A stretch of 64,000 nucleotides of DNA from Candidatus Multivorans azotirespirans (GCA_027493095.1 JAPVXD010000198.1:30253-94252); one strand, 5' to 3'. Positions 2,849 to 62,828 are shown, counted from the stretch's first letter. Program-made: numbers and translations. The notes: a model not told the origin generated them from the sequence alone.

Positions 2849-3325
2849 ATGAGTCACATGGTCGGAGTATCCCGGTCGAGTCGGCGGCACGCCTTGATGG
2901 CAATGGCCCTGGTTGGAACGCTCGCGGCCTGCGGTCCGTCGGAGGGCCCGCCGCCGGAGCCTCGGCCGGACGTGGACACGTTGCGCGCGTCCTTCATCGC
3001 GCAGATCGAGTCGATCGACCTCGTGGCGGGCCTCGAGACCGACGGCGACGAGGTTCGCTTCGTTCGTCCCGACGGCTCGGGCGAGGACGTCGAGTGGCGC
3101 GTGCGGATCGACTCGCTTGAGGTGGAGTCCGGGGAAGGCGAGGGGGCGCAGGTGCTAGGTCGCGTACGGTCGGCCTGGAGTGCCGACGGCCGCCCGATCA
3201 CGGTCCAGCAGGGCCCTGCGGGGCTTGTGACCGACATGCCTCACTGGCTCCTCGACGCCGGTCTGGCGCCCGCTGAATGCTGGGCGTTGTGGGACGAAGA
3301 AGCGAAGGCGTGGGGCTGGACGTGA
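2849..3325 (+). CDS. Hypothetical lipoprotein
   Basis: MSHMVGVSRSSRRHALMAMALVGTLAAC has a basic n-region, a hydrophobic core and an L-A-A-C lipobox. No recognisable catalytic motif. Confidence 0.55.
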   Translation: MSHMVGVSRSSRRHALMAMALVGTLAACGPSEGPPPEPRPDVDTLRASFIAQIESIDLVAGLETDGDEVRFVRPDGSGEDVEWRVRIDSLEVESGEGEGAQVLGRVRSAWSADGRPITVQQGPAGLVTDMPHWLLDAGLAPAECWALWDEEAKAWGWT

Positions 3326-3408
3326 CGCGGACCGCTGTTGATCCGCGGCTATGATCGAAGGACGCTGCTTTGCATTCCTGGGTTCACCCGCTCTTGGGAG
3401 GTAGTCGG

Positions 3409-4488
3409 ATGAGGAAGAACGAACAGTCGAGAGCCGTGGTGACGATTGGCGCGATGGCCCTGTTGCTCGGGCTCGCCGCCGCCGGCGCGGTCTTGGCGGC
3501 CAACAACAACGCCAAGGACGCGGACTGGGCAATCCCCCGCACCGCTTACGGCCACCCGGACCTCCAGGGCGTGTGGGAGAACAACAACGGCACTCCTCTG
3601 CAGCGCCCCGCCGCCTGGGCGGGCAAGGAGCGTCTGACGGACGAGGAGTTCCAGGAACTGATGGCCGCGGTCGCCGAGGCGACGAACCCCGGCGCGGACG
3701 CCCTGTTCGGCGACCAGCTCGTCCTGGCGGCGATCGAGCGGACGAAGGCGACGTCCTACGACCCGACGACCGGCAACTACAACCAGTTCTGGATCGCTGA
3801 CCGGTACTTCACGAAGCGCACTTCGCTCGTCGTCGACCCGCCCGACGGTCTGGTCCCGCCCCTTACCGAACCGGCGAAGAAGCGCCTCTGCAAGCGGGTG
3901 AAGCACCTGATGGAGCATCCGGCCGACTCCTGGCTCGACCGGCCGATCGCCGAGCGCTGCATCAGCTACGGCGCCCCGTTCATCTTCCCCGGCTACAACA
4001 GCTACCACCAGATCTTCCAGAGCGAGGACCACGTCGTCATTCACCAGGAGATGATCCACGACGCGCGCGTCATTCGGCTGGACGACGAGTCCGCGCTCGA
4101 CGACGACGTGAGGCTCTGGAACGGCGACTCCCGCGGCCACTGGGACGGCGACACCCTGGTCATCGAGACGTCGAACTACTCGAAGAAGAACGACTTCATG
4201 GGCTCCTCGGAGCAGCTGAAGATCACCGAGCGGTTCACGCTGACGGACCCGGAAACCCTGGAGTGGGAGATCACGGTGAACGACCCGGGGACGTGGACAC
4301 AGCCCTGGACGGCGTCGATTCCCCTCAAGCGGACAGAGGACGCGATCTACGAGTACGCCTGTCACGAGGGCAACTACGGGATGGAGGGCATGCTCGCCGG
4401 CGCCCGCGCCGAAGAGGCGGCCAACAAGCCGAAGCAGCTCGATCCGGGCGTCGTGTTTCGGTATCCGGGACTGACCTGCGACTTCTAG
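3409..4488 (+). CDS. Secreted hypothetical protein (unknown family; C-terminal YEYACHEGNY motif)
   Basis: GGGAGG RBS sits 7 nt upstream of the ATG at 3409. Signal-peptide-like N-terminus (AVVTIGAMALLLGLAAAGAVLA). Coding-like composition throughout. Confidence 0.65.
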   Translation: MRKNEQSRAVVTIGAMALLLGLAAAGAVLAANNNAKDADWAIPRTAYGHPDLQGVWENNNGTPLQRPAAWAGKERLTDEEFQELMAAVAEATNPGADALFGDQLVLAAIERTKATSYDPTTGNYNQFWIADRYFTKRTSLVVDPPDGLVPPLTEPAKKRLCKRVKHLMEHPADSWLDRPIAERCISYGAPFIFPGYNSYHQIFQSEDHVVIHQEMIHDARVIRLDDESALDDDVRLWNGDSRGHWDGDTLVIETSNYSKKNDFMGSSEQLKITERFTLTDPETLEWEITVNDPGTWTQPWTASIPLKRTEDAIYEYACHEGNYGMEGMLAGARAEEAANKPKQLDPGVVFRYPGLTCDF

Positions 4489-5270: not shown

Positions 5271-5948
5271 TCAGCCGCTGAGCATCTTCTCCCTGCGCTC
5301 GGCGCGGGTGAACGTGAGGGCGACGATCGCCGCGATCGCGAGGGCGGTGCCGATGCGATTCTGAACGTTCAGCGCGAGCATCTGCGCCGCGTCCGCCTCT
5401 TCCACGGCGAGCGGGTTCCAGAACGGTGAGACGCGGAACGAACCGAACAGCCGGTTGAGGCCGAGGACGCCGATCGTGGCGAGGGAGCCGGCCACGTCGC
5501 TGCGGAACAGGGTCGCGAAGCCCATGGCGGCAACGAGGTAGAAGACGACTCCCTGCGTCGCGCCGTACAGGCCCTGGAGAATCGGGAATTCCGTGAAGAA
5601 GGCATAAGTCACGCCGGCGAGGAGGACCAGGCTGACCAGGAGCATCAGGATCGCGGCGGCGAGCTTGCCGAGCCAGACCCGATGGGCGCCTCCGGGAACG
5701 GTGTAGGCAATCTCGAGGCTGTGCTGATCGAGTTCGCCTGTGATGATCCGGCCGCCCAGGAAGATCGCGAGCACGGCTACCGGTACGCCGATCAGGCTGT
5801 TCTGCGCCGCCGCCGGCTCCAGGGCAGGTCGCATGCCGGCTACCAGCATGAGGGCCTGTACTACGAGCCACACCAGCGGCAGCAAGGGCAGCAGCCAGTA
5901 CCGGCGTCCGCCAAGCAACACCGCCGAGGTGCGAAGCAGCGTGATCAT
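5271..5948 (-). CDS. ABC-2 type transporter permease (about 6 TM)
   Basis: 225-aa polytopic membrane protein. Its ATG overlaps the stop of the upstream NBD-containing ORF (ATGA at 5945-5948). Confidence 0.75.
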   Translation of the reverse strand: MITLLRTSAVLLGGRRYWLLPLLPLVWLVVQALMLVAGMRPALEPAAAQNSLIGVPVAVLAIFLGGRIITGELDQHSLEIAYTVPGGAHRVWLGKLAAAILMLLVSLVLLAGVTYAFFTEFPILQGLYGATQGVVFYLVAAMGFATLFRSDVAGSLATIGVLGLNRLFGSFRVSPFWNPLAVEEADAAQMLALNVQNRIGTALAIAAIVALTFTRAERREKMLSG

Positions 5949-8900
5949 GCCGGCGCCTCAGTACGCACCGCGCGCGCGAGCCACAGGTAACCGTCCTCCA
6001 GCGTAGGCTCGGCGGGGGCGGCCCGCTCGTCCGGGCGGCCGGCGGCGAGTACGCGAAGGCTGCTCGTGCCGTCCGGTTCGGGCTTCTGGTCTGCCAGCAC
6101 GGCGCCCTCGGGCAGCTCGGGCACTTCTTCTTCGCCCGCCGTCCGCCACGACCACACTCTGCCCTCGGCTTCGCGCGACAACGCGGCCGGGTGGCCGTCG
6201 AAGACCATTCGACCGCGGCTCAACACAAGGACGCGATCGCACGCTACCGCCACGTCTTCGACGACGTGGGTCGAGAAGAGCACGATCCGGTCCTTCGCGA
6301 GCCGTGAGAGCAGGTTACGGAAGCGGACCCGCTCGCGGGGGTCGAGGCCGACGGTCGGTTCGTCGACGACGATGATCGGAGGCAACCGGAGCAGCGTGCG
6401 CGCCACCGCAACGCGCTGTCGCATTCCACCCGAGTAGCCGCCGATCTGCTCGTCGGCGCGCTCGTCGAGCCCGACCTCACGCAGCAGCGTCGAAATGCGT
6501 TCGGCCCGTTCCGACGTGTCGATCTGGTAGAGGGCGGCGTAGTACTCGAGGTACTGGCGGGCGGTCAGCCGGGGCGGCAGGCCGGCGTCCTGGGGCAGGT
6601 AGCCGACGTAGCGCGCGAGGCGCGTTCGGACGCTGAGCAACGGAACGCCGCCGAGCGTGATCCGGCCCCGCGTCGAGTCGAGGATTCCAGTCAACTGCCT
6701 GAGCAGCGTCGTCTTGCCGGCGCCGTTCGGGCCGAGCACTCCGACCATGCCGCGTTCGGCCTCGAAGCTCACCGCGGCCAGGGCCTTGACGGTGTCGATC
6801 GGCAGGTCCAGACCGAACACCTTCGTTGCCGCGGCGCGCCAGAGGCGAAGGAGCTGACCACGCCAGCCCCTTGCGCGTCGTCGCCGGGAGGTCCGCTGTT
6901 CCCGGCGCATCGTCTCGAGCCGCGCCGTGCGGCGTCCGAGCTGAACCAGCAGAATGACCGTGGAGACGATGGCCAGCGCGATGAACCCTGCGACTTCAGG
7001 ATCGGCGACCATCTCCGGAACGACCAGCCAGGCGAGAAGCGCCCAGGACAGCAGGGCCGTCAGCACGCCCTCGACGCCGCCCGGTTTCACGCGCCCGAGC
7101 TCGTCGGCGTGGCCCCGGGCGCGTCGGATCTCACGCAGCAGCCGGGAACCGATCAGCAGGATGGCGATCAGGACTCCGAGGATGATCAGGCCGCCGGTCA
7201 TCCGCGCCGCCAGGGCGACGGCGCCGGCGAACAGGAGCAGGAGAGGCAGCAGCCGGTCACGGGCGTCGGCCGGCTCAAAGGCCCGGCCGCCCTGGGCGGC
7301 GACCCGCCTGGCGAAGTCGGCGGTAGCCCGCAGCGCCCGGCGCACCGGGCCGGGGAGGCCGTACGTCTTGCGCAGGTGGCGGACGACGAGCTTTGGTGGG
7401 CCGGCGGCCGTTTCCGGCTCGGGCGACGGCGGCTTCGGCAGCAGCCACACGGTGAGGCCGAGCAGCGCTCCGGCGATCAGCACCGTGGTCGTGATCTGCC
7501 AGAACATCGACTCGATCACGCCGAACGCGAACAGAGGCGCGGTCGTCGCGATGACGGCGCCGAGCCAGGTCAGCACGACCCAGGGGCCGACGCGGCTGAA
7601 CAGTTCGTCGAGGCGTCGCAGGAAGACGAAGCCGACCGGGATGACGAGCAACGTCAGCAGGGTCGCGGTCAGCAGGCCACCGATCACGAGCGTCGCAAAG
7701 GGCGGCCAGATCTCGTTCTCGCGCCCGGTCGCGATGGACAGGGGCGCCAGCGCCGCGACCGTCGTGGCGGACGTCATCAGGACCGGGCGCGCTCGCTCGC
7801 GGACGGCGGCGAGGGCGGCCGCGCCGGCGCTCCAGCCGGCGCCCAGCGTGTGCTGCTGCATTCGGTCGACGAGCAGGACGGCCGGGTTGATCGCCAACCC
7901 GAGCAGAACCAGTGCTCCGAGCAGAGCCATCGCCTCGAAGCCGATGCCGGTCAGGACCAGGGCCCAGACCGAGCCGAGCAGCGCGAGGGGAAGGGCGATC
8001 AGGACGAGGATTGGCAGCGTCATCGACTCGAACGTCACCGCCAGGACGAGGAAGACCAGAAGAACGACCGGCACCACGATGCGCCGGAACCAGTTCGTGC
8101 TCTCCCCGGAGCGGTCGAGCGCGATGGTCGTGCCCGCGGGCCGGTGGATGCTGGCGATCGCCTCGTCCAGGCTCCGGTCGAAGGCGTCGCGCGCCGGGCC
8201 CCGCCGCGGCACGTCCGGCGACAGGGTGTAGAAGACCTCCCGTTCGCGGACGCCGTTGTGGTGGGTGATGACCGGGGAAGGCGGCGCCTGCCGCACCTGC
8301 GCCAGGGCGGCGACCGGCAGGACTCCGGCCCCGGTCGAGACGCGGAGCCGCTGCAGCCCGCTGAGCGACACGTCGCGGTCGAGGCTGCTGTCGTTCGGGG
8401 GCTCGGCCTCGTCGCGCCGCTCCTCCGACCGTTGGACGACGATCGGCAACTCCCGCCCGCTGTCAAGCGGATAGCCGGTGTTGATCCTGGTCCCTTCGCG
8501 TCCGGCCAGATTCAGCATCGGCAGTACCTCGTCCAGGAGCACGCCGAACGTGTCGAAGGCGCGCCGGTTCGGACTCACGTGGAGTTCGTCGGGCCCTGGG
8601 CGTACCGCCGGATAGGCGCCTGCGATGCCCTCGATCTCCCGTAAACGCTCGGTGACCTGGGCCGCGAGGTCCGTCAACTGTTCGTTGTCGTTGCCGGAAA
8701 GGACGACCCGGGATGGGCCGCCGCCGAGCAGTTCCTGGGCGCCGCCGCCTCTGCCGCCTCCGCCGCCTCCACGTCCTCCCGGGCCTTCGCCCTCGCCCGG
8801 ATTGAGGAGTTCGGCGCCGGCGCGCCGGGCCGGGGGACGCAGCAGCTGCCGTACGCGTCTGGCCGTCAGCCCCTCAGGTCGCTCGTCTTCCTCCACCAGG

Positions 8901-10762
8901 TGGACGGTGAGCGATCCTCCCTCTTCCCGGATCATGCTCTCGACGCGGTCGACGCCCTCGACTTCCTGAATCGTCTCGAGACGTTCAAAGACGCGGACGG
9001 CGGAGTCGAGGCTTCCGCGGCCCTCGGGCAGGCGGACGGAGAGTTGGACCTGATCGGCGATAGGCGCCTGGCCCGGTCCGCTCGAAGCGACCAGGAACAG
9101 GGCGGCGATGACGCTCAGGACGACGGCCGTGACGACACCCGTGATCCAGCTCGCCGGCCGGCGCAGGGCGGAGGCAAGCACGCCCGCGAACAGAATCCGC
9201 GTGGGGTCGGGCGGCACCAGTCCGCCGAAGCGTTCGCGGCGTTGACGCAGCTTGGTCAACCGTCGAATCGCGGCCGGTGCCGCGAGATGCCGCGCCAGCA
9301 GGGGCACCAGTCCGATCGCCACCAGGAGGGAGCCGAACAGCGGCAGCAGGATGGCCAGCGACAGGAGCGCGATCAGGTTCTGGATCAGGGACGACTCCAG
9401 GTCGACGATGACGGCGGGCAGGAAGACGATCGCCGTCGTTACGGAAGCGGCGACGATGGCGCGGCCCGTACGCCGGATGCCCCCGGCCGCGGCGTCGTCG
9501 GGACTCCTGCCGCGTTCCAGACGGCGCTGGACGGACTCGAACACGACGACGCTGTTGTCCACGATGAGTCCGACGCCGATGGCCAGCCCGAAGAGCGTGA
9601 ACAGGTTGAGCGACAGACCGGCCACGTAGAGGAAGGAGAGAGCCACCGCCAGACTGACCGGCACGGCGACCGCGACCACGGCAACCGCGCGCCACTGGCG
9701 GAGGAAGAGGAACAGGACCAGGAGCGCGATTCCGAAACCCGAGAGACCGAGGTTCCGCAGTCGGTCGATCTGCGTTTCGACCAGGTCGGCGGCGTCGAAG
9801 CTCGGGAGCAGGCGGATGCCGAGGGGAGTGAACTCCTCGTTGATCTCATCGATCCGGCGGCGCAGATCGCGACCGAGCCGCACCAGATTGGCGCCTTCCT
9901 CCTGGAACACCATGACGCCGACCGACGGCTCGCCGTTGACCCGGTACAGCATCTGACGGCGGCCCGAGCCGATCTCGACGTCGGCCACGTGGCGAACCAG
10001 GACGGGAAGGTCGGGGACCACCCGGACCTCGCCCATCGACACCGGGCCGGCTGGCCGGCCGTCGAGCATCACCGCCGTCCGCCCTGCCTCGTCCTCCAGG
10101 CTGCCGAGGTAGCGGAGGCGTCCCGCCGCACCGCGCACCGCCGCGGTCACCTGCTCCGTCGTCACGCCGAGCGCGGCACAGCGGTTCGGGTCGACCCACA
10201 CGGTCAGCTGGCGCGAGGCGCCGCCGCCCAGCATCGCCTGGCTGACCCCCGGCACCGCGGCCAGCCGGGGCGTGATCATCTCGTCGACCAGATCGTACAG
10301 TGCATCCTCGTCGTCGGAACCGGTCACCTGCAGGATCATGGCGAAGCTCGAGAAGACACTGGTGTCGTCGGCCTGCACGTCCAGGAAGGCGTCTCGCGGC
10401 TGTGTCCGTGCGAGATCGGCGGCGATGCGGCGCATCTCGAGTTCGCGCACCTTGAGATCGACGCCGCGCTCGAAGCGGACGGTGAAGCTGCCGGCGGCGC
10501 CGCTGACCTCGCCCCAGGTCTCGGCTACCCGGGGCAGTGTCCGGACCCGGGCTTCGAGCGGCATCAGAATCTCCCGCTCGATCGTCTCCGGTTCGCTGCC
10601 CGGGCGGAAGAAACTGACGTAGAGCGAGTCGCCCGTGAGGGCAGGGAACAGTTCGACGGGAAGTCTCTGCCAGGCGAACCCGCCGAGCATGACGAGTGCG
10701 ACGAAGAACATCGTCACCGCCACCGGGCGGCGGATGGCGAGCGTGTCGAGACCGGCTTTCAC
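5945..10762 (-). CDS. RND efflux permease (AcrB-like, about aa 1-1056) fused via 2 extra TM helices to an ABC ATP-binding domain carrying an internal 4-TM-like insertion (aa about 1057-1605)
   Basis: Single uninterrupted 1605-aa ORF.
- N-terminal part has RND hallmarks: AIRRPVAVTMFFVALVMLGG, GLAIGVGLIVDNSVVVFESV, RARPVLMTSATTV.
- C-terminal part has Walker A GPNGAGKTT (6707-6733), signature YSGGM (6422-6436), Walker B IIVVDEP (6356-6376) and H-loop FSTHVV. Confidence 0.85.
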   Translation of the reverse strand: MKAGLDTLAIRRPVAVTMFFVALVMLGGFAWQRLPVELFPALTGDSLYVSFFRPGSEPETIEREILMPLEARVRTLPRVAETWGEVSGAAGSFTVRFERGVDLKVRELEMRRIAADLARTQPRDAFLDVQADDTSVFSSFAMILQVTGSDDEDALYDLVDEMITPRLAAVPGVSQAMLGGGASRQLTVWVDPNRCAALGVTTEQVTAAVRGAAGRLRYLGSLEDEAGRTAVMLDGRPAGPVSMGEVRVVPDLPVLVRHVADVEIGSGRRQMLYRVNGEPSVGVMVFQEEGANLVRLGRDLRRRIDEINEEFTPLGIRLLPSFDAADLVETQIDRLRNLGLSGFGIALLVLFLFLRQWRAVAVVAVAVPVSLAVALSFLYVAGLSLNLFTLFGLAIGVGLIVDNSVVVFESVQRRLERGRSPDDAAAGGIRRTGRAIVAASVTTAIVFLPAVIVDLESSLIQNLIALLSLAILLPLFGSLLVAIGLVPLLARHLAAPAAIRRLTKLRQRRERFGGLVPPDPTRILFAGVLASALRRPASWITGVVTAVVLSVIAALFLVASSGPGQAPIADQVQLSVRLPEGRGSLDSAVRVFERLETIQEVEGVDRVESMIREEGGSLTVHLVEEDERPEGLTARRVRQLLRPPARRAGAELLNPGEGEGPGGRGGGGGGRGGGAQELLGGGPSRVVLSGNDNEQLTDLAAQVTERLREIEGIAGAYPAVRPGPDELHVSPNRRAFDTFGVLLDEVLPMLNLAGREGTRINTGYPLDSGRELPIVVQRSEERRDEAEPPNDSSLDRDVSLSGLQRLRVSTGAGVLPVAALAQVRQAPPSPVITHHNGVREREVFYTLSPDVPRRGPARDAFDRSLDEAIASIHRPAGTTIALDRSGESTNWFRRIVVPVVLLVFLVLAVTFESMTLPILVLIALPLALLGSVWALVLTGIGFEAMALLGALVLLGLAINPAVLLVDRMQQHTLGAGWSAGAAALAAVRERARPVLMTSATTVAALAPLSIATGRENEIWPPFATLVIGGLLTATLLTLLVIPVGFVFLRRLDELFSRVGPWVVLTWLGAVIATTAPLFAFGVIESMFWQITTTVLIAGALLGLTVWLLPKPPSPEPETAAGPPKLVVRHLRKTYGLPGPVRRALRATADFARRVAAQGGRAFEPADARDRLLPLLLLFAGAVALAARMTGGLIILGVLIAILLIGSRLLREIRRARGHADELGRVKPGGVEGVLTALLSWALLAWLVVPEMVADPEVAGFIALAIVSTVILLVQLGRRTARLETMRREQRTSRRRRARGWRGQLLRLWRAAATKVFGLDLPIDTVKALAAVSFEAERGMVGVLGPNGAGKTTLLRQLTGILDSTRGRITLGGVPLLSVRTRLARYVGYLPQDAGLPPRLTARQYLEYYAALYQIDTSERAERISTLLREVGLDERADEQIGGYSGGMRQRVAVARTLLRLPPIIVVDEPTVGLDPRERVRFRNLLSRLAKDRIVLFSTHVVEDVAVACDRVLVLSRGRMVFDGHPAALSREAEGRVWSWRTAGEEEVPELPEGAVLADQKPEPDGTSSLRVLAAGRPDERAAPAEPTLEDGYLWLARAVRTEAPA

Positions 10763-24829: not shown

Positions 24830-25216
24830 TCAGGGCTCTGCGACCTCTGGTGACTCGTCCCGTGCCGTGCGAATGAAGTCGCGATCGAATGTGAGCATCG
24901 TCTCGCAGTGAGCGGCGACGCCAAGATGCAGGGCATCCGCGAAGTCCATGCCCTTCGCCGCCCGGTCGAGCGCCTCGACTAGCAGGTTCGGGCTCTCCAC
25001 CGTGACACCCGGCAGTCCCGAGAAGGCCCGCAAGGCCGAGGCGGCATCCTCGGCGGCAAGGCCGTAAACGCTGCGCAGGACCCACTCGCACTCAAGGAGG
25101 ACGGTCGTGCTCACGAAGACGTTCCCCGTCTCGACTACATTTCTCGCCCTGGCGGCTTGTTCCGGATCGTCGCCGGTCAGGTAGCGAACGACGACGTTGG
25201 TGTCAATCGCCCGCAT
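24830..25216 (-). CDS. vapC: PIN-domain toxin (VapC family)
   Basis: MRAIDTNVVVRYL N-terminus, plus the ...LLECEWVL... and ...TFDRDF... acidic residue pattern of PIN nucleases. Confidence 0.85.
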   Translation of the reverse strand: MRAIDTNVVVRYLTGDDPEQAARARNVVETGNVFVSTTVLLECEWVLRSVYGLAAEDAASALRAFSGLPGVTVESPNLLVEALDRAAKGMDFADALHLGVAAHCETMLTFDRDFIRTARDESPEVAEP

Positions 25217-25478
25217 GCCGTCGCCTGGCCTCGGCCAGGACGCCTTCCCGCATCTCCTGGGGGGACTTCGGTGGGCCGTCGTAGGCCACGCTGCCGAACA
25301 CGTCCTCGGGCCGGGTCTCGGGAAGCACGGGCTCGGGCTTGAGCAGGACGCCGTCGGGCGTGTTCTCCACGACGAGGCGCGTTCCGGCTGCCCAGCGCAG
25401 CTCCCGGCGAATCGCCTTGGGCAGGATCACCTGCCCCTTGGTCGAGAGTTTTGTGGTCAGTGGTTCGGGCGTGAGCAT
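25203..25478 (-). CDS. AbrB/MazE/SpoVT-family antitoxin
   Basis: Trimmed from the 338-aa track ORF to the ATG at 25478, which is preceded by a GGAGGAGG RBS. LSTKGQVILPKAIRRELRWAAGTRLVVE is a SpoVT/AbrB motif. The 14-nt overlap with the PIN gene is consistent with a TA pair. Confidence 0.8.
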   Translation of the reverse strand: MLTPEPLTTKLSTKGQVILPKAIRRELRWAAGTRLVVENTPDGVLLKPEPVLPETRPEDVFGSVAYDGPPKSPQEMREGVLAEARRRHAGD

Positions 25479-25613
25479 CGGTGGATCCCCTCCTCCATGC
25501 GGGTAAGGCGAAAGTAAGATACACCGTTCCGTGCGTGCAGCCAAGTACGGAGGTCCGCGGGCGCCGCGGCGGGAGCGCGCGGACGAGCGGCCGGCGGCGG
25601 TAGAGTCAGGTCC

Positions 25614-30756: not shown

Positions 30757-33700
30757 CCGGCCAGGCCGCGCCGCCACTCGCGGACGAAACCGCCCGCCGG
30801 CGGATCCGGGAGGCGCTGGGTGAGAGCCAACTCGTCGAGGCGGCCGCCGGCACCGGCAAGACGACCGTGCTCGTCGAGCGGCTGGTGGCCCTCCTGGAGC
30901 AGGGCCTGGGCACCGTCGACGGGCTGGCGGCCGTCACCTTCACGCGCAAGGCCGCGGGCGAACTGAAGCTACGCCTGCGCGAGGAACTGGACAGGAGGCT
31001 GGTCGAGCTGCGCGCCGCGGGCGTTGCCGACGGGCGCACCCAGAACCTGGAGGCGGCGATCTCGCGCCTGGAGGAGGCGTCGATCGGTACGATCCACTCG
31101 CTTTGCGCCGAGATCCTCCGGGAACGGCCGGTCGAAGCCGGCGTCGATCCGGGCTTCGGCGAACTGGCCGAGGACGAGGCGCCGCGTCTCTTCAACCGCG
31201 CCTTCCGGAGCTGGATCGAGGAGCAACTCGAATCGATGCCGCCCGGTCTGCGCCGGGAACTGGCGCGGCTCACGGCCGGGCCGTGGTCACCGCGGCAGCC
31301 GCCGCTGGACCGGTTGCGCGACACCGCTCTTCGACTGGTCGAATGGCGCGATTTCCCGTCGAGTTGGCGGCGGCCGGACTTCGACCGCGAAGCGCAACTC
31401 GGGGATCTCGCGACGCGCGTGGAGCGTCTCGCCGACCTCGTGCGGCACGGGCGGCGCGGCGACATCCTGCGGCGCGGCCTCGACCGGGTCGTCGAGCTGG
31501 CGGCCTGGATCGCCCGGGCGCGGGAGCTGGGCGCCTCGAAGCCGGACGGCGGTGGCGTGGAAGCGGACGGCGGCGAGGCGGTTCAGGATCAACTGGAGGC
31601 ACGGCTCGTCGAGCTGCGGCGTCGTCTGAGCGGCTATGGCGCTCCCCGCAAGGGTCGCGGCGGCTTCGCGGAGGGTGTCGCGCGGGACCAGGTGTGGGAG
31701 TTCTGGCGGCGGCTGGCGGAGCGGCTGGAGCAGTTCGTGGAGGCGGCCGACGCGGATCTCGCGGCGTTGCTCCGCGACGAGCTGGCCGGTGCGGTCGAGC
31801 GTTACGAAGAGGCAAAGAACTCTCTCGGCAAGCTGGACTTCCATGACCTCCTGATCAAGGCTCGGGACCTGCTGCGTTCTGACGGCACGGTCCGAGCCCA
31901 CCTTCAGCGGCGCTACAGCCATCTGTTCATCGACGAGTTCCAGGACACGGATCCGCTTCAGGCGGAGATCCTGCTTCTGCTGGCCGCCGACAGTCCCGAA
32001 CCGTGCGACTGGAGGGAGGTGCGGCCGGCAGCAGGCAAGCTCTTCGTCGTCGGCGATCCGAAGCAGTCGATCTATCGCTTCCGCCGCGCCGACGTGGTGC
32101 TTTACCACGACGTCAAGGAGATGCTCGCCGGCCGCGGCGTCGAGGTCCTCCACCTGACGACCAGCTTCCGGTCGGTCGGGCCGATCCAGCGAGCCGTGAA
32201 CGCTGCTTTCGCGCCGCTGATGACCGGCGACCATCAAGCCGGCAGCGCGGACTACATCGCCCTCGGCGAGCACCGCGAATCGATCGCCGGCCAGCCCGCC
32301 GTGATCGCCTTGCCGGCACCCAGACCGTACGGATCCCGCAACCTGAGCAATCGGGAGATCGAGGCGTGCCAGCCGTATGCCACGGTCGAGTTCGTGCGCT
32401 GGCTGATCGAAGACAGCGGGTTCGAGGTCGAGGTTCCGGACCCGGACCGGCCCGGACAGCGCATGCGGTCGCGGATCCGGCCCCGGGACGTCTGCCTCCT
32501 CTTCCGCCGGTTCCTGAGCTGGAACCGGGACACGTCCCGCGAGTACGTTCGGGGACTGGAGGCCGTGGGCATTCCCCATCTCCTGCTCGGCGCCCGCTCC
32601 TTCCACGAGCGGGAAGAGGTGGAGGCGCTGCGGTCGGCACTGAAGGCGGTGGAGTGGCCGGATGACGATCTCTCCGTCTACGCGACGTTGCGGGGAGGGC
32701 TGTTCGCGTTCGACGACGAGTTGCTGCTGCTGTTCAAGGCCCGCTACGGCACCTGGCATCCGCTTCAGGGCCCGCGGCGAGCACGCGAGGACGGCGAACC
32801 ACCCGAGGAGTTCCGGTCCGTGGTCGAGGTGCTGGACTTCCTCGCCGAGCTCCACCGCCGGCGGAACTATCGGCCGATCGTGCGCACCGTGCAGGAAGTA
32901 CTGGCCAGGCCCCGGGCCCAGGCGTCGATGGCGTTGCGGCCGGCTGGCAACCAGGTGCTGGGCAACGCGCAGCGGGTGTGCGATCTCGCCCGCCGCTACG
33001 AGCTCGCGGGCGGCCGCTCCTTCCGCGGTTTCGTCGAGCAGTTGGACGAGGAGGCCGAACGGCCGGCGAGCACGCAGGCCCCGGTGGTCGAGGAGGACGC
33101 GGAGGGCGTGCGGATCATGACGGTCCACACCGCGAAGGGGCTGGAATTCCCGGTCGTCATCCTCGCCGATATGACGGCCGGCCTGTCCCGCGGCGCCGAA
33201 CGGACCGTGCGCCCGGAGGACGGCCTGTGCGCGATGAGGCTCCTCGGCCTGTCACCTCAGGAGCTGCTGGACGCGAAGGAGATCGAGGACCGGCGAGAGG
33301 AGGCGGAGGGCGTGCGGGTCGCCTACGTGGCGGCGACTCGCGCCCGCGACCTGCTCGTCGTGCCGGCGGTCGGCGACGCGCAACGGAAGGGTTGGGTCCA
33401 GTGTCTGAACGATGCGGTCTACCCGCCGGCGGAGCAGTGGCGGCAGTCCGAGCCGGCGGAGGGCTGTCCGGCGTTCGGCGAGCGCACTGTCGCCAGGCGT
33501 CCACACGACTACGAGAATCAGCCCGAGACGTCGGTCCGGCCGGGCCGCCACAGTTTCCCGGGCGTCGCGGGCGAGGCCGGTGACACGGGCTACGACGTCG
33601 TCTGGTGGGACGCCGAGTTGCTCGACGGGAAACCGCCGGCGAGCTACGGTCTGCTGGGCGAGGATCTGCTGGTTGAAGCCGGCGACGACGCGAACCGCGA

Positions 33701-48532: not shown

Positions 48533-51001
48533 GTGTTCGAGAAGTACAACGAGAAGTCGCGCCGCGCACTCTTCTTCGCCCGCTACGAGGCGAGCAAACT
48601 GGGAAGTCGGGTCATCGAGTCGGAGCACATCCTGCTCGGCATCCTGCGCGAGGGAGAGGAGTCGATCATCGAGCTCTTCCAGCGCCTCCAGGTCAAGCCG
48701 GAGGATCTCCGCCGCGAGATAGAGGGCGAGCGAGTGTTCGTCGAGCGCATCTCGTCGACCGCCGAGCTGCCGTTGTCGGAGGAGTCGAAGAGGATACTGG
48801 CCCACGCCTCGCACGAGGCGGAGAGCATGGTTCATGCCGCGGTCGGCTCCGAGCATCTGTTGATCGGCATCATGCGGGTCGACGGCTGTCTGGCCCAGCG
48901 CGTTCTCGCGGAGCGCGGACTCGAGGTTGCGACGGTGCGCGAACAGGTCGCAACCATCGCTCGCGAGCGCGCCAGCAGGCGCGGCAAACAGGAGTTGCCC
49001 TTCCTGACGGAGTTCGGCCGCGACCTGACCGCGCTCGCGCAGCAGGACCAGTTCGACCCCCTGATCGGCCGCGAACAGGAAGTCGGTCGTATCGTCCAGA
49101 TCCTCGCGCGACGGACGAAGAACAACCCCATCCTGCTCGGGGAACCGGGGGTGGGCAAGACGGCCATCGTCGAGGGACTGGCGCAACGGGTGTCTCAAGG
49201 CCGCGTGCCGAAGTTCCTCGGGCGCAAGCGGATCGTCGCGCTCGACCTGTCCCTGATCGTGGCCGGCACGAAGTACAGGGGGCAGTTCGAAGAGCGCCTG
49301 AAGGGCATTCTCAAGGAGCTCGAGGAAGGCGAGGACGTGCTCGTCTTCATCGACGAGATCCACGCTCTGGTCGGAGCCGGTTCGGCCGAGGGTTCCCTCG
49401 ACGCCGCGAACATCCTGAAGCCCGCCCTGTCGCGGGGCGACATCGCGTGCATCGGCGCCACGACCCTGCGCGAGTACCGCCGGCACATCGAGAAGGACCG
49501 CTCCCTGCTGCGGCGGTTCCAGGCGGTACAGATCAAGCCGCCCTCCGCGGACGAGACCTACGACATCCTGGTCGGCCTGAAGGAGCGTTACCAGGGTTTC
49601 CACAACGTCGCCTACGACGACGCCGCGCTGCGCGCCGCGATCGCCGGTTCCAACCGCTACATCCCCGACCGTCATCAGCCCGACAAGTCGATCGACGTGA
49701 TCGACGAAGCCGGCGCCCGGGTCAAGCTGCGCCGGGTACGGGATACCAGGCAGGCGCGGCGGATCGAGCAGGAGATCCGGGAAGTGGTGGCCGAGATGAA
49801 GGCGGCGATCTCGGACAAGGACTTCGACCGCGCCGTCCGCTTCCGAGAGCGCGAGATCGAACTCCGGGAAGATCTCGAGAGCATCGAGCAGTTGCATGAC
49901 CAGGACGTTGAGGATCAGGTCGTGACCGCTCAGGACGTGGAGGAGGTGATCGCCTCCTGGACAGGGGTGCCGGTGGCTGCCGTGCGTGGCGACGAGGCGA
50001 AGCGGCTGATGAAGATGGAGGACGTTCTGCGTCGCCGGATCGTCGGCCAGGATCGGGCGATCCGGTCGATCAGCCGCGCCATCCGCCGGTCGCGGCTCGG
50101 CGTTTCCGATCCCCGTCGTCCGGTCGGTTCGTTCGTCTTCCTGGGCCCGAGCGGTGTCGGCAAGACGGAGGTCGCCCGGCGCCTCGCCGAGTTCCTGTTC
50201 GGCAGCCAGACCGCTCTCATGCGTTTCGACATGAGCGAGTACATGGAGAAGTACTCGGCCTCCAAGCTGATCGGTTCGCCGCCGGGCTACGTCGGCTACG
50301 AGGAGGGCGGCCAGTTGACGGAGCGGGTTCGGCGCCAGCCTTACTCCCTGATCCTCTTCGACGAGATTGAGAAGGCGCACCCGGACATCATGAACCTGTT
50401 GCTTCAGATCCTGGAGGAAGGCAGTCTGACCGACGCCTACGGCAACTACGTCGATTTCCGGCACGCCCTGGTGCTGCTGACGTCCAACCTGGGCAGCAAG
50501 CTGGTGCTCAAGGGTGGACGCGTGGGCTTTGGCGGGGCGTCTTCGGCAGGAGACTCTTCCCCAGAGGGGGACTTCGGGCGCGTCAGGGAAGAGATCGAAG
50601 CGGAGTTGCGCCGCAGCTTCAGCCCCGAATTCATCAACCGCATCGACGAGACGATCGTGTTCAATCCGCTGGGCCGGGAGGAGCTGCGCGCGATCACGTG
50701 CCTCCTGCTTTCCGACGTGAACGAGACGCTTGCCGAGCGCGGTCTGACCGTCGAGGTGACCAGTGAAGCGCGGGAATGGCTGCTGGAGCAGGCAGGCATC
50801 GATCCGTCGACCGGGGCCCGTCCGTTGCGGCGCACGATCCAGCGTTACGTCCAGGATGCGGTGTCGGACCTGCTGATCCAGCGAACCGGCGATTCCGTCG
50901 AACGCATCCGTGTGGATCTCGCGCGGGACGAACTGGTCCTGGAGGTCGTTCAAGACGCCGCCCCGACCGTTGAGGAGGAACCTGCTCTTGCGGAATCCTG
51001 A
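48533..51001 (+). CDS. clpC: ATP-dependent Clp protease ATP-binding subunit ClpC-like (class I Clp/Hsp100)
   Basis: Clp_N repeats, two AAA+ modules ([18 protein letters not shown]), and a UVR-like linker ([17 protein letters not shown]). Confidence 0.9.
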
Positions 51002-53723
51002 TCGAAAGGTTTTGCGACGGCTGGCATGGCCGGGGGCGCTGGTCGCCGCCTTCCTGCTGGCCGTGCCGGCCGCCGGCCAGTTGTTGGTCGGCCAGCCGAT
51101 CGTGTCGGTGGAGTACGCCGGCGTCGAGACGCTGAGCGAAGACAGCCTGAGCTACTACCTGGATATCGAAACCGGGAAGCCCTGGGATCCCGGCCGCGTG
51201 AACGACCGGATCAAGGATCTCTGGGAGCGCAAGCTGATCGATGACATCTCGATCGCGGCCGAGGCGCAGGGCGAAGGCGTGCTGGTCCGGGTGACGGTCG
51301 TGGAAAGGCCGCTCCTGGTCTCGCTCGAGTACGACGGTCTGAAGAAGGTGAAACGGAGCGACATCGGCGACATGACGGACCGGGAGCGGATCTCGGTCTT
51401 CGAGGGCCTGCCGCTGGACCTGGGCGAACTGGCGCGCCTCGAAGAGGCGATCAAGAAGCTCTACGAGGAGCGCGGCTTCCGGTTCGCGGGTATCCACGTC
51501 GAGATCCAGGACGCGGGTCTGGGCGAGAAGCGGGTGCTGATCACCGTCGACGAGGGCGGGAGGGTCAAGATCGGCCAGGTCGATTTCGAGGGCAACGAGG
51601 TGTTCTCCGCCGGCCGCCTGCGCCGCCAGATGGAGAAGACGAAGAAGTCGAACCTCCTGACCCGGATCCGCAAGCGCGACGTGTTCAACTCGGCGACGGT
51701 CCAGGAGGACCTCGACAAGGTCAAGGGCCTGTACCGCCAGTTCGGCTACAAGGACGTCGAGGTCGGCGAGCCCGAGCTCGACGTGATCGAGCGGAAGCCG
51801 AACGCCGATCGCATCGAGGACCGCAAACGGCAGCTCGCCCTGGTGATTCCGATCGAGGAGGGCCCGCGCTGGAAGCTGGGCGAGGTCCAGGTCGAGGGGG
51901 CCGAGGTTCTGCCCGAGGGTCTGCTGGTCGCGATGTTCAAGGATCCAAAAGGGGGCTGGCTGCGCTCGGACGTCATCGACGAGGGTGTCGAGCAGGTCGG
52001 GGAGCTGTATCGGAACAGCGGTTACATCTTCGCCGACGTGAAGATGGAGGTCATCGAGCGCGATGACCTGATTGCCGACATCCTGGTGACGGTCGAGGAG
52101 AACGACCAGTTCCGGATCGGGCGGATGGAGTTCACCGGCAACGACCGGACGCGTGACCGGGTGCTCCGCCGCCAGATGCTGCTCAAGGAAGGCGACGTCT
52201 TTAACTCGGGCATGCTGCGCACCAGCCTGTTGCGGCTCAGCCAGCTCGAGTACTACGTGGTCAACGAGGACGATCCGGTCGAGGTCGACTACGACACGGA
52301 CGACAAGCAGGTCGACATCACCGTCAAGGGCACGGAGACCGGCCAGACCGAGGTCCAGTTCGGCGGCGGCTACAGCGAGCTCGACGGCTTCTTCGTCCAG
52401 TCGGCGTTGCGCACCCGCAACTTCCTGGGCCGCGGCGAGACCGTCGGCGTGTCGATCCAGACGGGCCGCTACCGCGACATCTTCGATGTCTCGTACTACA
52501 TGCCCTGGGTCAAGGACCGTCCCCAGAACTTCGGGATTCAGCTCTTCAACCGGGACACGGACTTCGACCTCCTGATCGACCAGCGCTACCGAAGCAAGGA
52601 GGCCGGCGGCGTCCTGAGCTACGGCCGCTCGTTCCGTCGCTGGGAACTCGTGCAGTTGGCCTACAGCAACATGGACATCGAGAGCTACCAGTCGCAGACG
52701 TTCTACTTCTTCGACAACCCGGAACAGAGCGACGACCCGATGAGCGACACGTTCGAGCAGGCGTTCGAGTTCAACCGCCGCTCGGTCACGGCCACCTACC
52801 AGTTCGACAGTCACAACAGCCGTCTCGAGCCGACCCAGGGCAAGCGCCTGGTCGCATCCCTCGAGTACGCCGGCGGCCCCCTTGGCGGCGAGTCCTTCTT
52901 CATCCGCCCGTCGCTGAACGCGGCGATCACCGTGCCGCTGACGAACCGCGGGCTGCGGACGGTGGGGCGGGCGAACATCCAGCTCGGCTACATCCAGCCG
53001 TTCGGGGAAGACGGCGCGGGCAACGTGCGCGAGTTGTTCTTCCTCGACCGCTACCTGCTGGGCGGCGAGAACAGCCTCCGCGGCTTCGCGTTCCGTTCCA
53101 TCTGGGTGCGTGATCCGGAAACCGGCCGCACTCTTCTCGACCGGAACGGCTTCCCCCAGGGCGGCAACAAGAGCGTGGTGATCAACCTCGAGCACCACAC
53201 CCTGGTCAACGGTCCTTTCCGCGTCGTGACCTTCTTCGACGCCGGCAATGTCTACGGCGACGACCAGGACGTCGACTTCAACCACATGCGCATGTCGGCC
53301 GGAATCGAGCTTCGGGTCAACGTGCCCATCCTTGGAGCTCCGCTCCGCTTCATCTACGCTACGAACCTGAATCCGCTGGACAACCTCGGAGGCGTCGACC
53401 GGGAGCGGTTCAACGATGGTCGGCTGACCTTTGCCGAGGACCGTCTGGCCGAAATGGAGAAGCAGCTCGAGGACATGACGATCGACCTGCGGCGCGCCCA
53501 GGACGACGCGAACCGCGAAATGCAGAAGGTGCAGGGCGAGAGGTTCGGCGAGATCGAACAGGCGGTACTGCCGATCATCTCCCAGGTCGGCCGGGAGTTC
53601 GGCTACACGGCGATCTTCAACAAGTTCCAGGGGGGCCTGCTGTTCGCCGCCGACGCTGCGGACATCACGAACCTGATCATCGAGCGCTACAACGCCGCGT
53701 ACCCGGCCACTCCCGCGGAGTAG
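50988..53723 (+). CDS. bamA: Outer membrane protein assembly factor BamA with a C-terminal Skp/OmpH-like extension
   Basis: GAGGAGG RBS lies 9 nt upstream of the TTG at 50988. POTRA repeats and an Omp85 barrel ending ...ERFNDGRLTF (about 53432). A further 96 aa follow that resemble the C-terminal half of Skp. Confidence 0.85.
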   Translation: MRNPDRKVLRRLAWPGALVAAFLLAVPAAGQLLVGQPIVSVEYAGVETLSEDSLSYYLDIETGKPWDPGRVNDRIKDLWERKLIDDISIAAEAQGEGVLVRVTVVERPLLVSLEYDGLKKVKRSDIGDMTDRERISVFEGLPLDLGELARLEEAIKKLYEERGFRFAGIHVEIQDAGLGEKRVLITVDEGGRVKIGQVDFEGNEVFSAGRLRRQMEKTKKSNLLTRIRKRDVFNSATVQEDLDKVKGLYRQFGYKDVEVGEPELDVIERKPNADRIEDRKRQLALVIPIEEGPRWKLGEVQVEGAEVLPEGLLVAMFKDPKGGWLRSDVIDEGVEQVGELYRNSGYIFADVKMEVIERDDLIADILVTVEENDQFRIGRMEFTGNDRTRDRVLRRQMLLKEGDVFNSGMLRTSLLRLSQLEYYVVNEDDPVEVDYDTDDKQVDITVKGTETGQTEVQFGGGYSELDGFFVQSALRTRNFLGRGETVGVSIQTGRYRDIFDVSYYMPWVKDRPQNFGIQLFNRDTDFDLLIDQRYRSKEAGGVLSYGRSFRRWELVQLAYSNMDIESYQSQTFYFFDNPEQSDDPMSDTFEQAFEFNRRSVTATYQFDSHNSRLEPTQGKRLVASLEYAGGPLGGESFFIRPSLNAAITVPLTNRGLRTVGRANIQLGYIQPFGEDGAGNVRELFFLDRYLLGGENSLRGFAFRSIWVRDPETGRTLLDRNGFPQGGNKSVVINLEHHTLVNGPFRVVTFFDAGNVYGDDQDVDFNHMRMSAGIELRVNVPILGAPLRFIYATNLNPLDNLGGVDRERFNDGRLTFAEDRLAEMEKQLEDMTIDLRRAQDDANREMQKVQGERFGEIEQAVLPIISQVGREFGYTAIFNKFQGGLLFAADAADITNLIIERYNAAYPATPAE

Positions 53724-53774
53724 CCCGCGAGTAGCGCGGCGACTGGGTGCGCCGGCGTCCCCGCCGGCATGTAA

Positions 53775-53796
53775 CCGCGGGTCTTCTGACCCGCGG
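53775..53796. terminator. Perfect 9-bp hairpin between convergent bamA and the beta-propeller gene (candidate bidirectional terminator)
   Basis: ccgcgggtc-ttct-gacccgcgg, read directly. There is no clear U-tract. Confidence 0.4.
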
Positions 53797-53833
53797 ACAA
53801 CACGCGCCGCGGAGCGGCGACCGCTTTGCCGCG

Positions 53834-55219
53834 CTACTCGCTGCTGCGGATGCTGTAAAGCTTCGACCGGGTGCGAATCAGCAGCCGGTCGCCAGCGACC
53901 GCCGGCGACGCCATCGCCATCTCGTCGAGGCTGTTGGTGTGGAGCACTTCGTACTCCGAGCCGGCGCGGATCACATAGGTGTCGCCCTGCTCGCTCAGCG
54001 CGAACACGCGGTCGTTGTAGGCCCAGGGAGATGAGGTGAAGCTGGCGCCGCCGCGGGGCGCCACGCGCTTCCGGCCGTACACCGGTTCGCCGGTCAGCGC
54101 GTCGTACGCCTCGAAGAAGCCGCGGTCCAGCAGGCTGTAGTAGACGCCCTTGTAGACCAGCGGCGACGTGTTGTAGTTGCCTGCCTTGGGCTGGTGCCAG
54201 GCGACGAACTCGCTCTCCGTCGCGTCACCTTCCAGGGTGATGTCGCCCAGCGCCCCCGGACGGATGGCGAAGACCGGCCGACGCTGATCCTGGAAGTAGC
54301 CGGAGTTGACGTAGATCATGTTGTGAGCCGCGAACGGCGTCGCAATGGCCGCCCAGGACATGCGGCCGTCCATCTCCCACAGCAGTTGGCCGTCCAGGCC
54401 GTACGAGCGGATCCGGTTCTTGCCGCTGGTGACGATCTCGGTGCGGGCTTCGTTGGACCATACGAAGGGCGTTGCCCAGCTCGACACCTCTTCCCGACTC
54501 GTGCGCCAGCGCTGTTCGCCGGTGTGCTTGTCGAGCGCGGCGATCCAGGACTCTTCCTCGTTGTCGTAGAGGATGATCAGCAGGTCGTCGTGCAGCACGG
54601 GCGAGGAGGCGGAGCCGTAGTCCCACATGGTCGGGCGGTAGGGCGTGTCGAAGCTCCACACGGACTCGCCTTCCATCGTGAAGGCGTAGACGCCGAGGTC
54701 GCCAAAGCGCGCATAGACACGTTCGCCGTCGGTCGTCGGCGTCTCCGAGGCGTAGGTCTGCTTCTGGTGGCGCGGGAACTCGGGTATGCCGGCCTTGACC
54801 GAGCGCTCCCACAGCACCTCGCCCGTGGCCAGGTCCAGGCAGTACACGAGCCAGTCGTGCTGCGCCTGCGGCGGTTCACTGCGCCCGCGGGCGGCGTAGA
54901 GACCGGCCTGTGGACGCTCGAACTCGCCTTCGGAAACCGCGGTCGTCAGGTACACCCGATTGCCCCATACGATCGGGCTGGACCAGCCGAGCCCGGGGAT
55001 CTCGACGACCCACTCGACATTCTCGGTCTGGCTCCAGCGATCCGGCAGGGCGGGGTTGTCGGCGACGGCCGGGTTCATGCCCGGGCCGCGGAACTGGGGC
55101 CAGTTGTCGGACGCGGCTGCCCCGCCGGCGCAGAGCGCGGCGCAAGCGAGGGCGGCGAGGATGACGGCGAGATTGGGCCTGGAGTGGTGGCGGTGCAGGT
55201 GCGATGTCGCGTTGCTCAT
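53834..55219 (-). CDS. Secreted PQQ-like beta-propeller repeat protein
   Basis: Signal peptide, then NWPQFRGPGMN. Repeated propeller blades. Paralogous in style to 26000-27421. Confidence 0.8.
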   Translation of the reverse strand: MSNATSHLHRHHSRPNLAVILAALACAALCAGGAAASDNWPQFRGPGMNPAVADNPALPDRWSQTENVEWVVEIPGLGWSSPIVWGNRVYLTTAVSEGEFERPQAGLYAARGRSEPPQAQHDWLVYCLDLATGEVLWERSVKAGIPEFPRHQKQTYASETPTTDGERVYARFGDLGVYAFTMEGESVWSFDTPYRPTMWDYGSASSPVLHDDLLIILYDNEEESWIAALDKHTGEQRWRTSREEVSSWATPFVWSNEARTEIVTSGKNRIRSYGLDGQLLWEMDGRMSWAAIATPFAAHNMIYVNSGYFQDQRRPVFAIRPGALGDITLEGDATESEFVAWHQPKAGNYNTSPLVYKGVYYSLLDRGFFEAYDALTGEPVYGRKRVAPRGGASFTSSPWAYNDRVFALSEQGDTYVIRAGSEYEVLHTNSLDEMAMASPAVAGDRLLIRTRSKLYSIRSSE

Positions 55220-55295: not shown

Positions 55296-56132
55296 GTGAC
55301 CCACCGCCTCGCCGATCTTGCCGCGATGGTTGGAGCTGACCTCGAGGGCGATCCGGATCGGCCGATCGACGGCATCGCCCGGGTCGACCCCGCCGCCCGC
55401 GTCGACGCTTTCGCGGTGGTCGGCGAGGGCTCGACGCTCGGCCCGGGCGTGGTCATCGGCGCCCACTCGGTGGTGGGCCGGGGCTGCCGCCTGGGCGCAG
55501 GCACCGTGCTCCATCCCCATGTCGTGGTCTACGACGGTGCCCGCGTCGGCGAGCGGGTGGTCGTTCACTCCGGTGTCGTTCTGGGCGCCGACGGTTTCGG
55601 GTTCGCGGAGGGCGCGGAAGGAGCGGCCCAGGTCAAGCTGCCTCAGGTCGGCGTCGTCGTGATCGAGGACGACGTGGAGATCGGCGCCAACTCCGCGGTG
55701 GACCGGGCCACCTTCGACACCACCACGATCGGTCGCGGAACGAAGATCGACAACCTGGTGCAGATCGGCCACAACGCGCAGATCGGCCAGGGATGCATCC
55801 TCTGCGGTCAGGCCGGCGTGTCCGGCAGCAGCCGCATCGGTGATCGGGTGCTTCTGGCGGGGCAGGTAGGCGTCGCCGGTCACTTCAGGATCGGCGACGG
55901 CGTGCAGGTGGCGGCCAAGTCGGCGGTGTTCCAGGAGGTCGAGGAGGACCAGCGTGTCGCGGGCATTCCCGCCGTACCAATCGCGGCCTGGCGCCGGCGT
56001 AACGCGCTACAGTCGCGCCTGCCGGCGATGCGCAGCGCGCTCAGGGCGCTCGAGCGACGTGTGGGGGAACTCGAATCGGCGGGTCGCGATGGCCGCAACG
56101 ATTCGGCGGCGGACGGGGGAGACGAGACGTGA
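55296..56132 (+). CDS. lpxD: UDP-3-O-acylglucosamine N-acyltransferase LpxD, unusually short (278 aa)
   Basis: LADLAAMVGADLEGD N-terminus, left-handed beta-helix hexapeptide repeats, GADGFGF, IGHNAQIG, and a C-terminal helix. An in-frame stop upstream of 55296 precludes a longer N-terminus. Confidence 0.8.
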   Translation: MTHRLADLAAMVGADLEGDPDRPIDGIARVDPAARVDAFAVVGEGSTLGPGVVIGAHSVVGRGCRLGAGTVLHPHVVVYDGARVGERVVVHSGVVLGADGFGFAEGAEGAAQVKLPQVGVVVIEDDVEIGANSAVDRATFDTTTIGRGTKIDNLVQIGHNAQIGQGCILCGQAGVSGSSRIGDRVLLAGQVGVAGHFRIGDGVQVAAKSAVFQEVEEDQRVAGIPAVPIAAWRRRNALQSRLPAMRSALRALERRVGELESAGRDGRNDSAADGGDET

Positions 56133-59345: not shown

Positions 59346-60124
59346 GTGCCGCCAGACTTCTCCTGACGAATGACGACGGCGTTGACGCGCCGGGTCTGCG
59401 CAGCCTCGCCGCGGCGCTCGACGGAGCGTCGACCGCCAGGGGACCGATCACCTACGATGTGGTGGCCCCGGAGCGCGAGCAAAGCGGTTGCAGCCAGGCG
59501 CTGACCCTGTTCCGGCCGCTGCGCGCGAAGCGGGTGCGGGAGGGCTGGTTCGCGGTGGACGGGACGCCCTCCGATTGCGTCAACCTGGCGGTTCACTCGC
59601 TGCTGGAGCAGCGTCCCGATCTGCTCGTGTCGGGGGTCAACATGGGGGTCAACCTGGGTGACGACGTGACCCACAGCGGCACGGTGGGCGCGGCGCTCGA
59701 GGGACGGCTCGCAGGCGTGCCGGCAGTCGCGTTCTCCCAGGAGTACCGGAAGGCCCGCCGCGCCGACATGGAACGCGCCGCGGCGCTGGCCGCCCGGGCG
59801 ATCGTCTCGCTCGTCGAGCAGGGAATTCCCGAGCGCCTGCTGCTCAACGTGAACTTCCCGTTCGACCCGCCCCGCGGGGTCAGGGTCGCGCGACTCGGCC
59901 GGCGGCCCTACCGCAACACGGTCGTCGAACAGGCGGATCCGCGGGGCGGCACGATGTACTGGATCGTCGGCAAGCCGGACCCGGAGCGCCGGCAAGACAC
60001 GGATGCGGCCGCGATCAGGGACGGCTTCATCTCGATCACGCCGCTTACCGCCGACCTGACCGACGGCGAGTCGCTCGACGCCGGCGACGGATTTCTGCCT
60101 GGTCTCGCGGGAGCCCTGGGTTGA
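59342..60124 (+). CDS. surE: 5'/3'-nucleotidase SurE
   Basis: ATGA overlap with mtnP. LLLTNDDGVDAPGL, SGVNMGVNLG, HSGTVGAA. Confidence 0.9.
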   Translation: MSAARLLLTNDDGVDAPGLRSLAAALDGASTARGPITYDVVAPEREQSGCSQALTLFRPLRAKRVREGWFAVDGTPSDCVNLAVHSLLEQRPDLLVSGVNMGVNLGDDVTHSGTVGAALEGRLAGVPAVAFSQEYRKARRADMERAAALAARAIVSLVEQGIPERLLLNVNFPFDPPRGVRVARLGRRPYRNTVVEQADPRGGTMYWIVGKPDPERRQDTDAAAIRDGFISITPLTADLTDGESLDAGDGFLPGLAGALG

Positions 60125-61979: not shown

Positions 61980-62828
61980 ATGAGCCGGTTGACACGAGAC
62001 GAGATACGGCGCGACGAGGTTCGGGAGGCTGTCTTTTCGGCTTCCACGTGGTTCGCGGAGCATGTTCGACAGATCCTGATGGGCGTCGTCGCGGTGATCG
62101 CCGTGGTCGTCGGAGCCGTGCTGTTCCTGAACTACCAGGATGGCCGGGAGAAGGAGGCCAGCTACCAGCTCAGCGCGGCCCTGAAGGTCTACCGGGCGCC
62201 GATCGACGCGCCGGCGACGGACGCAATCGACGACCTGTTCGGTACGCCTCCCGACAGCGCCCCGGAGGAAAGCGTCGTGGAAGAGGCGGAGGCGCCGGAT
62301 GCCGGGAGCGAAACCGGCGGCAACGGCCTGAGCTTCGCCTCGGAGGCGGAGCGGCGCTCGGCGGCGAGGACGGAACTCGAGGCCGTGAGGGAGAGCTACG
62401 GCTCGACCTCGTCCGGCCGGCTGGCTTCCGTCTACCTCGGGCAGATCGCGGCGGCTGAAGGGGATACCGCGAAGGCGCGGGAGCTGTGGACGAGTTACCT
62501 GGAGGCCGCCGGCCGCGATCACGCGATCGCCATCGGCGTGCAGTTGAACCTCTACAGCCTGGATCGGGCCGAGGGGCGGGGCGAGGAACTGGCCGCCACG
62601 CTGCGCGGCGCGGTGGCGGCCGAATCGTCGCCGCTGCCGAAGGACGCCCTGCTGTTCGAGTTGGCCGCCACCCTGGCGCAACTCGGCGACGAAGAGGGTG
62701 CCCGGGAGACCTTCCAGCGGGTGGTCAACGAGTTCCCGGACAGCGGCTACGCGATCCGCGCCCGGCAGCAGCTCGGAGCTCGCCGCCTTCCTGATGGCCG
62801 CCGCGATGCGAGGGCTCGACCGGGATGA
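61980..62828 (+). CDS. YfgM-like membrane-anchored TPR-like protein; the C-terminal 17 codons or so overlap the phosphorylase reading frame
   Basis: GGAGG RBS lies 9 nt upstream. There is an N-terminal cytoplasmic segment, one TM (ILMGVVAVIAVVVGAVLFL), then a helical-repeat periplasmic domain ending ...EFPDSGYAIRARQQLG. Confidence 0.7.
   Translation: MSRLTRDEIRRDEVREAVFSASTWFAEHVRQILMGVVAVIAVVVGAVLFLNYQDGREKEASYQLSAALKVYRAPIDAPATDAIDDLFGTPPDSAPEESVVEEAEAPDAGSETGGNGLSFASEAERRSAARTELEAVRESYGSTSSGRLASVYLGQIAAAEGDTAKARELWTSYLEAAGRDHAIAIGVQLNLYSLDRAEGRGEELAATLRGAVAAESSPLPKDALLFELAATLAQLGDEEGARETFQRVVNEFPDSGYAIRARQQLGARRLPDGRRDARARPG

Follow-up and report, generated by a model that had tools for sequence, protein, structure and literature searches.

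An apparent BamA-Skp fusion in a “Candidatus Multivorans azotirespirans” contig is a deletion chimera and most likely not a real biological feature

The 911-aa open reading frame in which bamA of “Candidatus Multivorans azotirespirans” appears to continue into a Skp/OmpH-like chaperone segment is a chimera, made by the loss of 298 nt at 53411|53412 of the window (the whole 64,000-nt stretch analysed here, JAPVXD010000198.1:30253-94252 of GCA_027493095.1). All other copies of the locus retain these 298 nt. The BamA-Skp fusion is thus most likely not a real biological feature. Judging from the sequence comparisons, a wrong contig join or an artefact of gap closure would be the most likely cause, and we consider this explanation probable.

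The chimeric frame runs uninterrupted on the plus strand from 50910 to 53723, bamA leading into Skp-like sequence with a C-terminal OmpH match, as the sequence-only reading had described. Counted from the GTG at 50910 it is 937 aa long. The true start is likely the TTG at 50988, which corresponds to the start used in sister assemblies and yields the 911-aa product on record as P0121. The bamA-derived part (50988..53411, plus strand) holds codons 1-808 of the normal 819, encoding the signal peptide, the POTRA repeats and the barrel up to ...GGVDRERF. The skp-derived part (53412..53723, plus strand) holds Skp codons 81-183 and the stop codon in the bamA frame, i.e. the arm tip, the returning helix and the C-terminal strands. 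A scan of 53300-54000 for promoters and terminators found none.

Profile searches recovered both families in this frame. Pfam reported POTRA at 128.9 bits in four stretches together with POTRA_2, and an Omp85 barrel match that stops at profile positions 1-311 of 325. On the BamA equivalog model of NCBIfam, TIGR03303 (OM_YaeT), the score was 427.7 bits over profile positions 3-724 of 741, against a curated cut-off of 297.15 bits. OmpH (PF03938) matched residues 844-926 of the 937-aa frame with 49.3 bits (profile positions 59-140 of 141 only) and the 96-aa tail alone with 53.2 bits (profile positions 61-140 of 141), both above the gathering threshold of 32.4 bits, so the proposal that the tail is Skp/OmpH was borne out. 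The chimera clears the score cut-offs of BamA and OmpH and fails on completeness for both families. A complete 16-strand barrel with a C-terminal F-x-F-x-I-G-x-x-F is absent, since DSFDFSIGTSF is deleted; a full-length OmpH domain is also absent, with the N-terminal body strands and the first arm helix gone; and the skp-derived part has neither a start codon of its own nor a Sec signal peptide. A tblastn search of the 64-kb window, using the strain's intact Skp as query, returned residues 77-183 only, at 53400-53720. In agreement with the earlier claim, a separate skp is missing from the window, as are the signal peptide and the N-terminal part of Skp. Other copies of the lost BamA and Skp segments were likewise not found within the window.

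The junction was located by comparison with other assemblies of the same strain, namely contigs from JGI 3300009930 (L003, L007, L013), JGI 3300009927 (L008/L011, L014), Logan SRR22392483 (L004/L015, L006, L009, L012) and Logan SRR22392485 (L005, L010). Compared with these four assemblies, at 100.000% identity, the window shows neither substitutions nor small indels, and three deletions are the only differences; the identity covers the window except for 777 nt (31268-32044), where the agreement is one of collinear coordinates on the JGI contig. Apparent mismatches and gaps near the junctions were discarded as BLAST over-extension into chance similarity (8 nt, 53404-53411, at the bamA-skp junction). 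Up to 53411 the window is 100% identical to L003, L008 and L009, and from 53412 onward it matches these contigs within the 3' part of their skp. In all three, bamA encodes 819 aa and skp is a separate gene of 183 aa, and the genes are likewise separate in two assemblies of ~99% identity (L001, L002). A stop codon behind the barrel followed by a normal skp start, which the sequence-only reading had named as evidence against a fusion, is present in every independent assembly. The closest BamA homologue, P0001, is 99% identical and 819 aa long, ends ...GGVDRERFDSFDFSIGTSF, spans the Omp85 profile completely (1-325 of 325) and lies on a contig with a separate 183-aa OmpH gene 22 nt after bamA. The intact Skp of the same strain spans positions 1-140 of 141 of the OmpH profile at residues 32-172.

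Position 53411 of the window corresponds to position 8424 of L001 and position 53412 to position 8723 in the DNA alignment, so exactly 298 nt are absent from the window, with a microhomology of 1 nt. Of the lost segment, 33 nt are BamA codons 809-819, 3 nt the stop codon, 22 nt the spacer and 240 nt Skp codons 1-80. BamA thereby loses its last 11 residues, DSFDFSIGTSF, which form the final barrel strand, and Skp loses its signal peptide, N-terminal strands and first helix; the Skp start and signal peptide, ATG-MNVKTPGLRTAAATAAVVAGVLMVGPALA, sit inside the deleted stretch. The intact skp is one frame ahead of bamA; since 298 equals 3n+1, the deletion brings what remains of skp into the bamA frame. 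The end of the barrel had been placed at ...ERFNDGRLTF (53432) and likened to the aromatic terminus of E. coli BamA. The junction actually lies 21 nt upstream, and the heptapeptide NDGRLTF is Skp residues 81-87, the real terminal strand being absent. Between the two causes that had been offered, a deletion joining the genes and a lineage-specific fusion, the first holds and the second is refuted. At the 3' end of the frame, an 11-nt tandem duplication (GAGTAGC...GAGTAGC, period 11) occupies 53718-53735 and begins with the final skp codon and its stop; it occurs in the 100%-identical assemblies and not in the 99%-identical L001 and L002, and the contigs of several assemblies break just downstream of it, at 53768-53972.

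Compared with BamA, the chimera shares the signal peptide, the POTRA repeats and the barrel, at 99% identity to the 819-aa protein of sister assemblies, but it is missing the 11-residue terminal strand that pairs with strand 1, and its profile matches end early (311 of 325 and 724 of 741). Its tail corresponds to residues 81-183 of the 183-aa Skp encoded by the same strain, but it has no start codon of its own, no signal peptide and no counterpart of profile positions 1-58; unlike free Skp, it can neither be exported nor assemble the trimer body.

The same arrangement of separate genes prevails among relatives. We compared 40 species-representative genomes, comprising “Candidatus Multivorans” and Thermoanaerobaculia or Holophagales MAGs, and all 40 have a separate skp of 180-190 aa with a signal peptide, contrary to what a fusion shared by the lineage would show in the bamA 3' regions. 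In 39/40 species skp follows 16-124 nt after a BamA ending in DRERF[D/E]SFDFSIG[T/V]SF, and the strand DSFDFSIGTSF is invariant in 38 of the 40, one further species having a single T-to-V change. The 40th genome, L047 (OX638294.1), has an extra ~1.7 kb between bamA and skp, and this insert (~2040-3760) includes an ORF with a zinc-metalloprotease-like motif, HEIGHVLGL. One further candidate, a 1007-codon open frame upstream of skp in L022, was dismissed: BamA ends normally there, and the open frame is just an alternative bamA frame that lacks stops, the DNA being GC-rich.

Database-wide searches gave a consistent picture. None of the 120 best BamA homologues carries an OmpH domain. Searched with HMMER against 1.84 billion representatives, the tail matched almost only stand-alone Skp proteins of 170-200 aa, at about residues 80-183, and there was no Omp85-sized protein with a C-terminal Skp match among the best 150. 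Three other proteins, P0225 (445 aa), P0252 (662 aa) and P0301 (665 aa), match the C-terminal half of Skp only, near their own N-terminus, and may be further chimeras of skp with a downstream gene or gene-call errors. The exact 32-mer across the bamA-skp junction had no matches in collections of genome contigs and metagenome contigs; the metagenome result carries no weight, as a control 40-mer from the JGI contigs L013 and L014 was also missed, those samples not being covered. A literature search on gene fusions of BamA with Skp/OmpH returned work on Skp function and no natural fusion.

Two further deletions affect the same part of the window. The canonical outer-membrane cluster bamA-skp-lpxD-fabZ-lpxA has its gene order in common with the window and all relatives. 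This clade differs from it by an opposite-strand gene for a PQQ-like beta-propeller protein between skp and lpxD (461 aa, 53834-55219, minus strand), which is conserved in L001, L003, L016 and the others examined, and only in this contig do deletions occur in bamA/skp and in lpxD. The lpxD gene (55296..56132, plus strand) has lost 255 nt at 55379|55380, equal to 85 codons in frame, with a 4-nt microhomology (CGCC); the product is 278 aa long compared with 363 aa in the intact protein, and the N-terminal domain PF04613, found by Pfam in the latter, is missing. At the third junction (62776..62777, plus strand), 169 nt are absent out of frame and with no microhomology; they cover the end of a TPR gene, the spacer behind it and 112 nt from the start of a trpD-like gene. 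The JGI contig Ga0131742_100340 (L014) terminates exactly at 62776. All three deletions (298, 255 and 169 nt) are thus clustered within 9.4 kb, between 53.4 and 62.8 kb. A scan of the intact sequence for direct repeats flanking the first and second lost segments found none, the third segment lying outside the scan.

The altered proteins are confined to this contig. In a collection of 15 billion proteins, the fused P0121, the shortened LpxD (P0135) and the TPR protein (P0150) come only from one NCBI contig of 118,067 nt, while unaffected neighbours on that contig (P0165, P0180) are also found in JGI and/or Logan data, namely the PQQ-propeller protein in JGI and Logan and FabZ in Logan. This restriction of the deleted proteins to one contig, with unaffected neighbours found elsewhere, favours an artefact. 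Other features of the window are shared with the JGI assemblies. A 1605-aa ORF on the minus strand (5945-10762) combines two ACR_tran (RND transporter) regions with an ABC_tran ATPase domain according to Pfam, an unusual combination that is identical in JGI contigs and hence not private to the assembly of the window, and a gene pair for a PIN-domain protein and a MazE-like antitoxin on the minus strand (24830-25500; PF01850 and PF04014) is present on the identical JGI contig L007.

The chimeric protein is not expected to function, because the strand that closes the BamA barrel is gone and the Skp piece has neither a signal peptide nor the N-terminal strands that belong to the trimer body; we found no support for function. 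An AlphaFold2 model of the 911-aa product, built on an alignment of 47 BamA homologues, shows confident POTRA domains and barrel strands up to residues 786-793. No strand follows and none is formed by NDGRLTF, and pLDDT stays below 55 for almost all of residues 812-911; we counted this, too, in favour of an artefact. The BamA barrel has 16 strands, the odd-numbered ones running outward. From this topology, a chain ending after strand 15 would exit on the outer face of the barrel instead of into the periplasm. Intact Skp aligns to solved OmpH chains over residues 31-175, and the piece retained here is without half of the trimer body.

Under the preferred explanation, the 298 nt would have been lost while the contig was built, either through a wrong join or because a gap in a stretch difficult to assemble collapsed or was closed incorrectly, and the same process would have produced the neighbouring blunt deletions, the one in lpxD and the one where the TPR and trpD genes meet. 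In the organism, BamA would then have its normal 819 aa and Skp, at 183 aa, would be separate and secreted, as in every other copy. Zero substitutions in 64 kb alongside three large deletions are unlike natural divergence and favour such an artefact. bamA and lpxD are essential in most diderm bacteria, and damage to both, together with the loss of a strand that is invariant or nearly so in 39/40 species, points in the same direction. The blunt junctions (1, 4 and 0 nt of microhomology) and the lack of repeats flanking the first two deletions make slippage or k-mer collapse unlikely and fit an end-to-end join. The other assemblies all break somewhere in this stretch, and repeatedly (49940-50038, 53768-53972, 59753-59851, 61852 and 62776), and are unbroken for >50 kb upstream; these breaks, including the end of L014 at 62776, again favour an artefact. 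In being restricted to one assembly, with identical flanks and with blunt, clustered junctions where other assemblies fragment, the frame resembles ORFs created by MAG misassembly.

Several observations count against an artefact. The window contains no N and thus no visible trace of a scaffold gap, and in this lack of Ns or scaffold marks it differs from ORFs of that kind, the mechanism being one that we infer from sequence. The JGI assemblies cross the first and second junctions without a break, so difficulty of assembly at these two sites is not general. The reading frame survives in two of the three deletions, a weak argument given that at least two in three would be in frame by chance with a probability of ~0.26. 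The end of L014 at the third junction would also be expected from a branch in a de Bruijn graph if reads carrying the deletion exist in that sample.

A different reading, which we regard as unlikely, is that the deletions are real DNA and the product is non-functional. They could represent a recent haplotype of a clonal, sponge-associated Acidobacteriota population, or deletion chimeras that arose during library preparation or amplification, and the assembly would have followed them by chance; carrier cells would not be viable, would form a minority or would be rescued by intact copies. A de Bruijn contig normally requires k-mers in the reads that span the junction, the stop of L014 would fit a graph branch between two alleles, and the 4-nt microhomology at the second junction, together with frame retention in two of the three deletions, is compatible with illegitimate recombination. 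Set against this are the lack of substitutions beside three large deletions within 9.4 kb, the fact that bamA and lpxD were both struck, with a nearly invariant BamA strand lost, and the occurrence of the altered proteins in no other JGI, Logan or ENA assembly despite the presence of the same strain at 100% identity. A partial TrpD, expected from a contig starting at the third junction, is not on record, which tells neither way.

It is very improbable that all three deletions are real in one living symbiont haplotype whose outer-membrane biogenesis is being remodelled or lost. Such cells would have to live with a BamA without its closing strand and with a tethered Skp arm, and with an LpxD without its N-terminal domain, and they would presumably survive by means of a second copy or the host environment. 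Finally, a functional, lineage-specific fusion, with a periplasmic chaperone arm tethered to the barrel and NDGRLTF serving as the last strand, is effectively excluded: the frame is open, the tail exceeds the Pfam threshold for OmpH and GRLTF ends on an aromatic residue, but the fusion is seen in none of the five assemblies of 100% (three) or 99% (two) identity, in none of the 40 related species and in none of the best BamA or tail matches, the conserved FDFSIGTSF motif is gone, the model forms no strand from NDGRLTF and has very low confidence in the tail, the chain would exit on the outer face without strand 16, and the Skp piece is only part of a trimer body.

The finding matters little as biology and serves as a quality flag for one deposited MAG contig with at least three silent deletions of 169-298 nt. 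Together they resulted in a plausible fusion that clears the Pfam cut-offs of its two domains, a shortened LpxD and changes to the TPR and TrpD proteins. Public protein collections already contain these altered products, which could pass for novel domain architectures. Almost certainly, bamA and skp are ordinary and separate in this organism; were the deletions borne out by read data, a symbiont with bamA, skp and lpxD all damaged at once would be a surprise.
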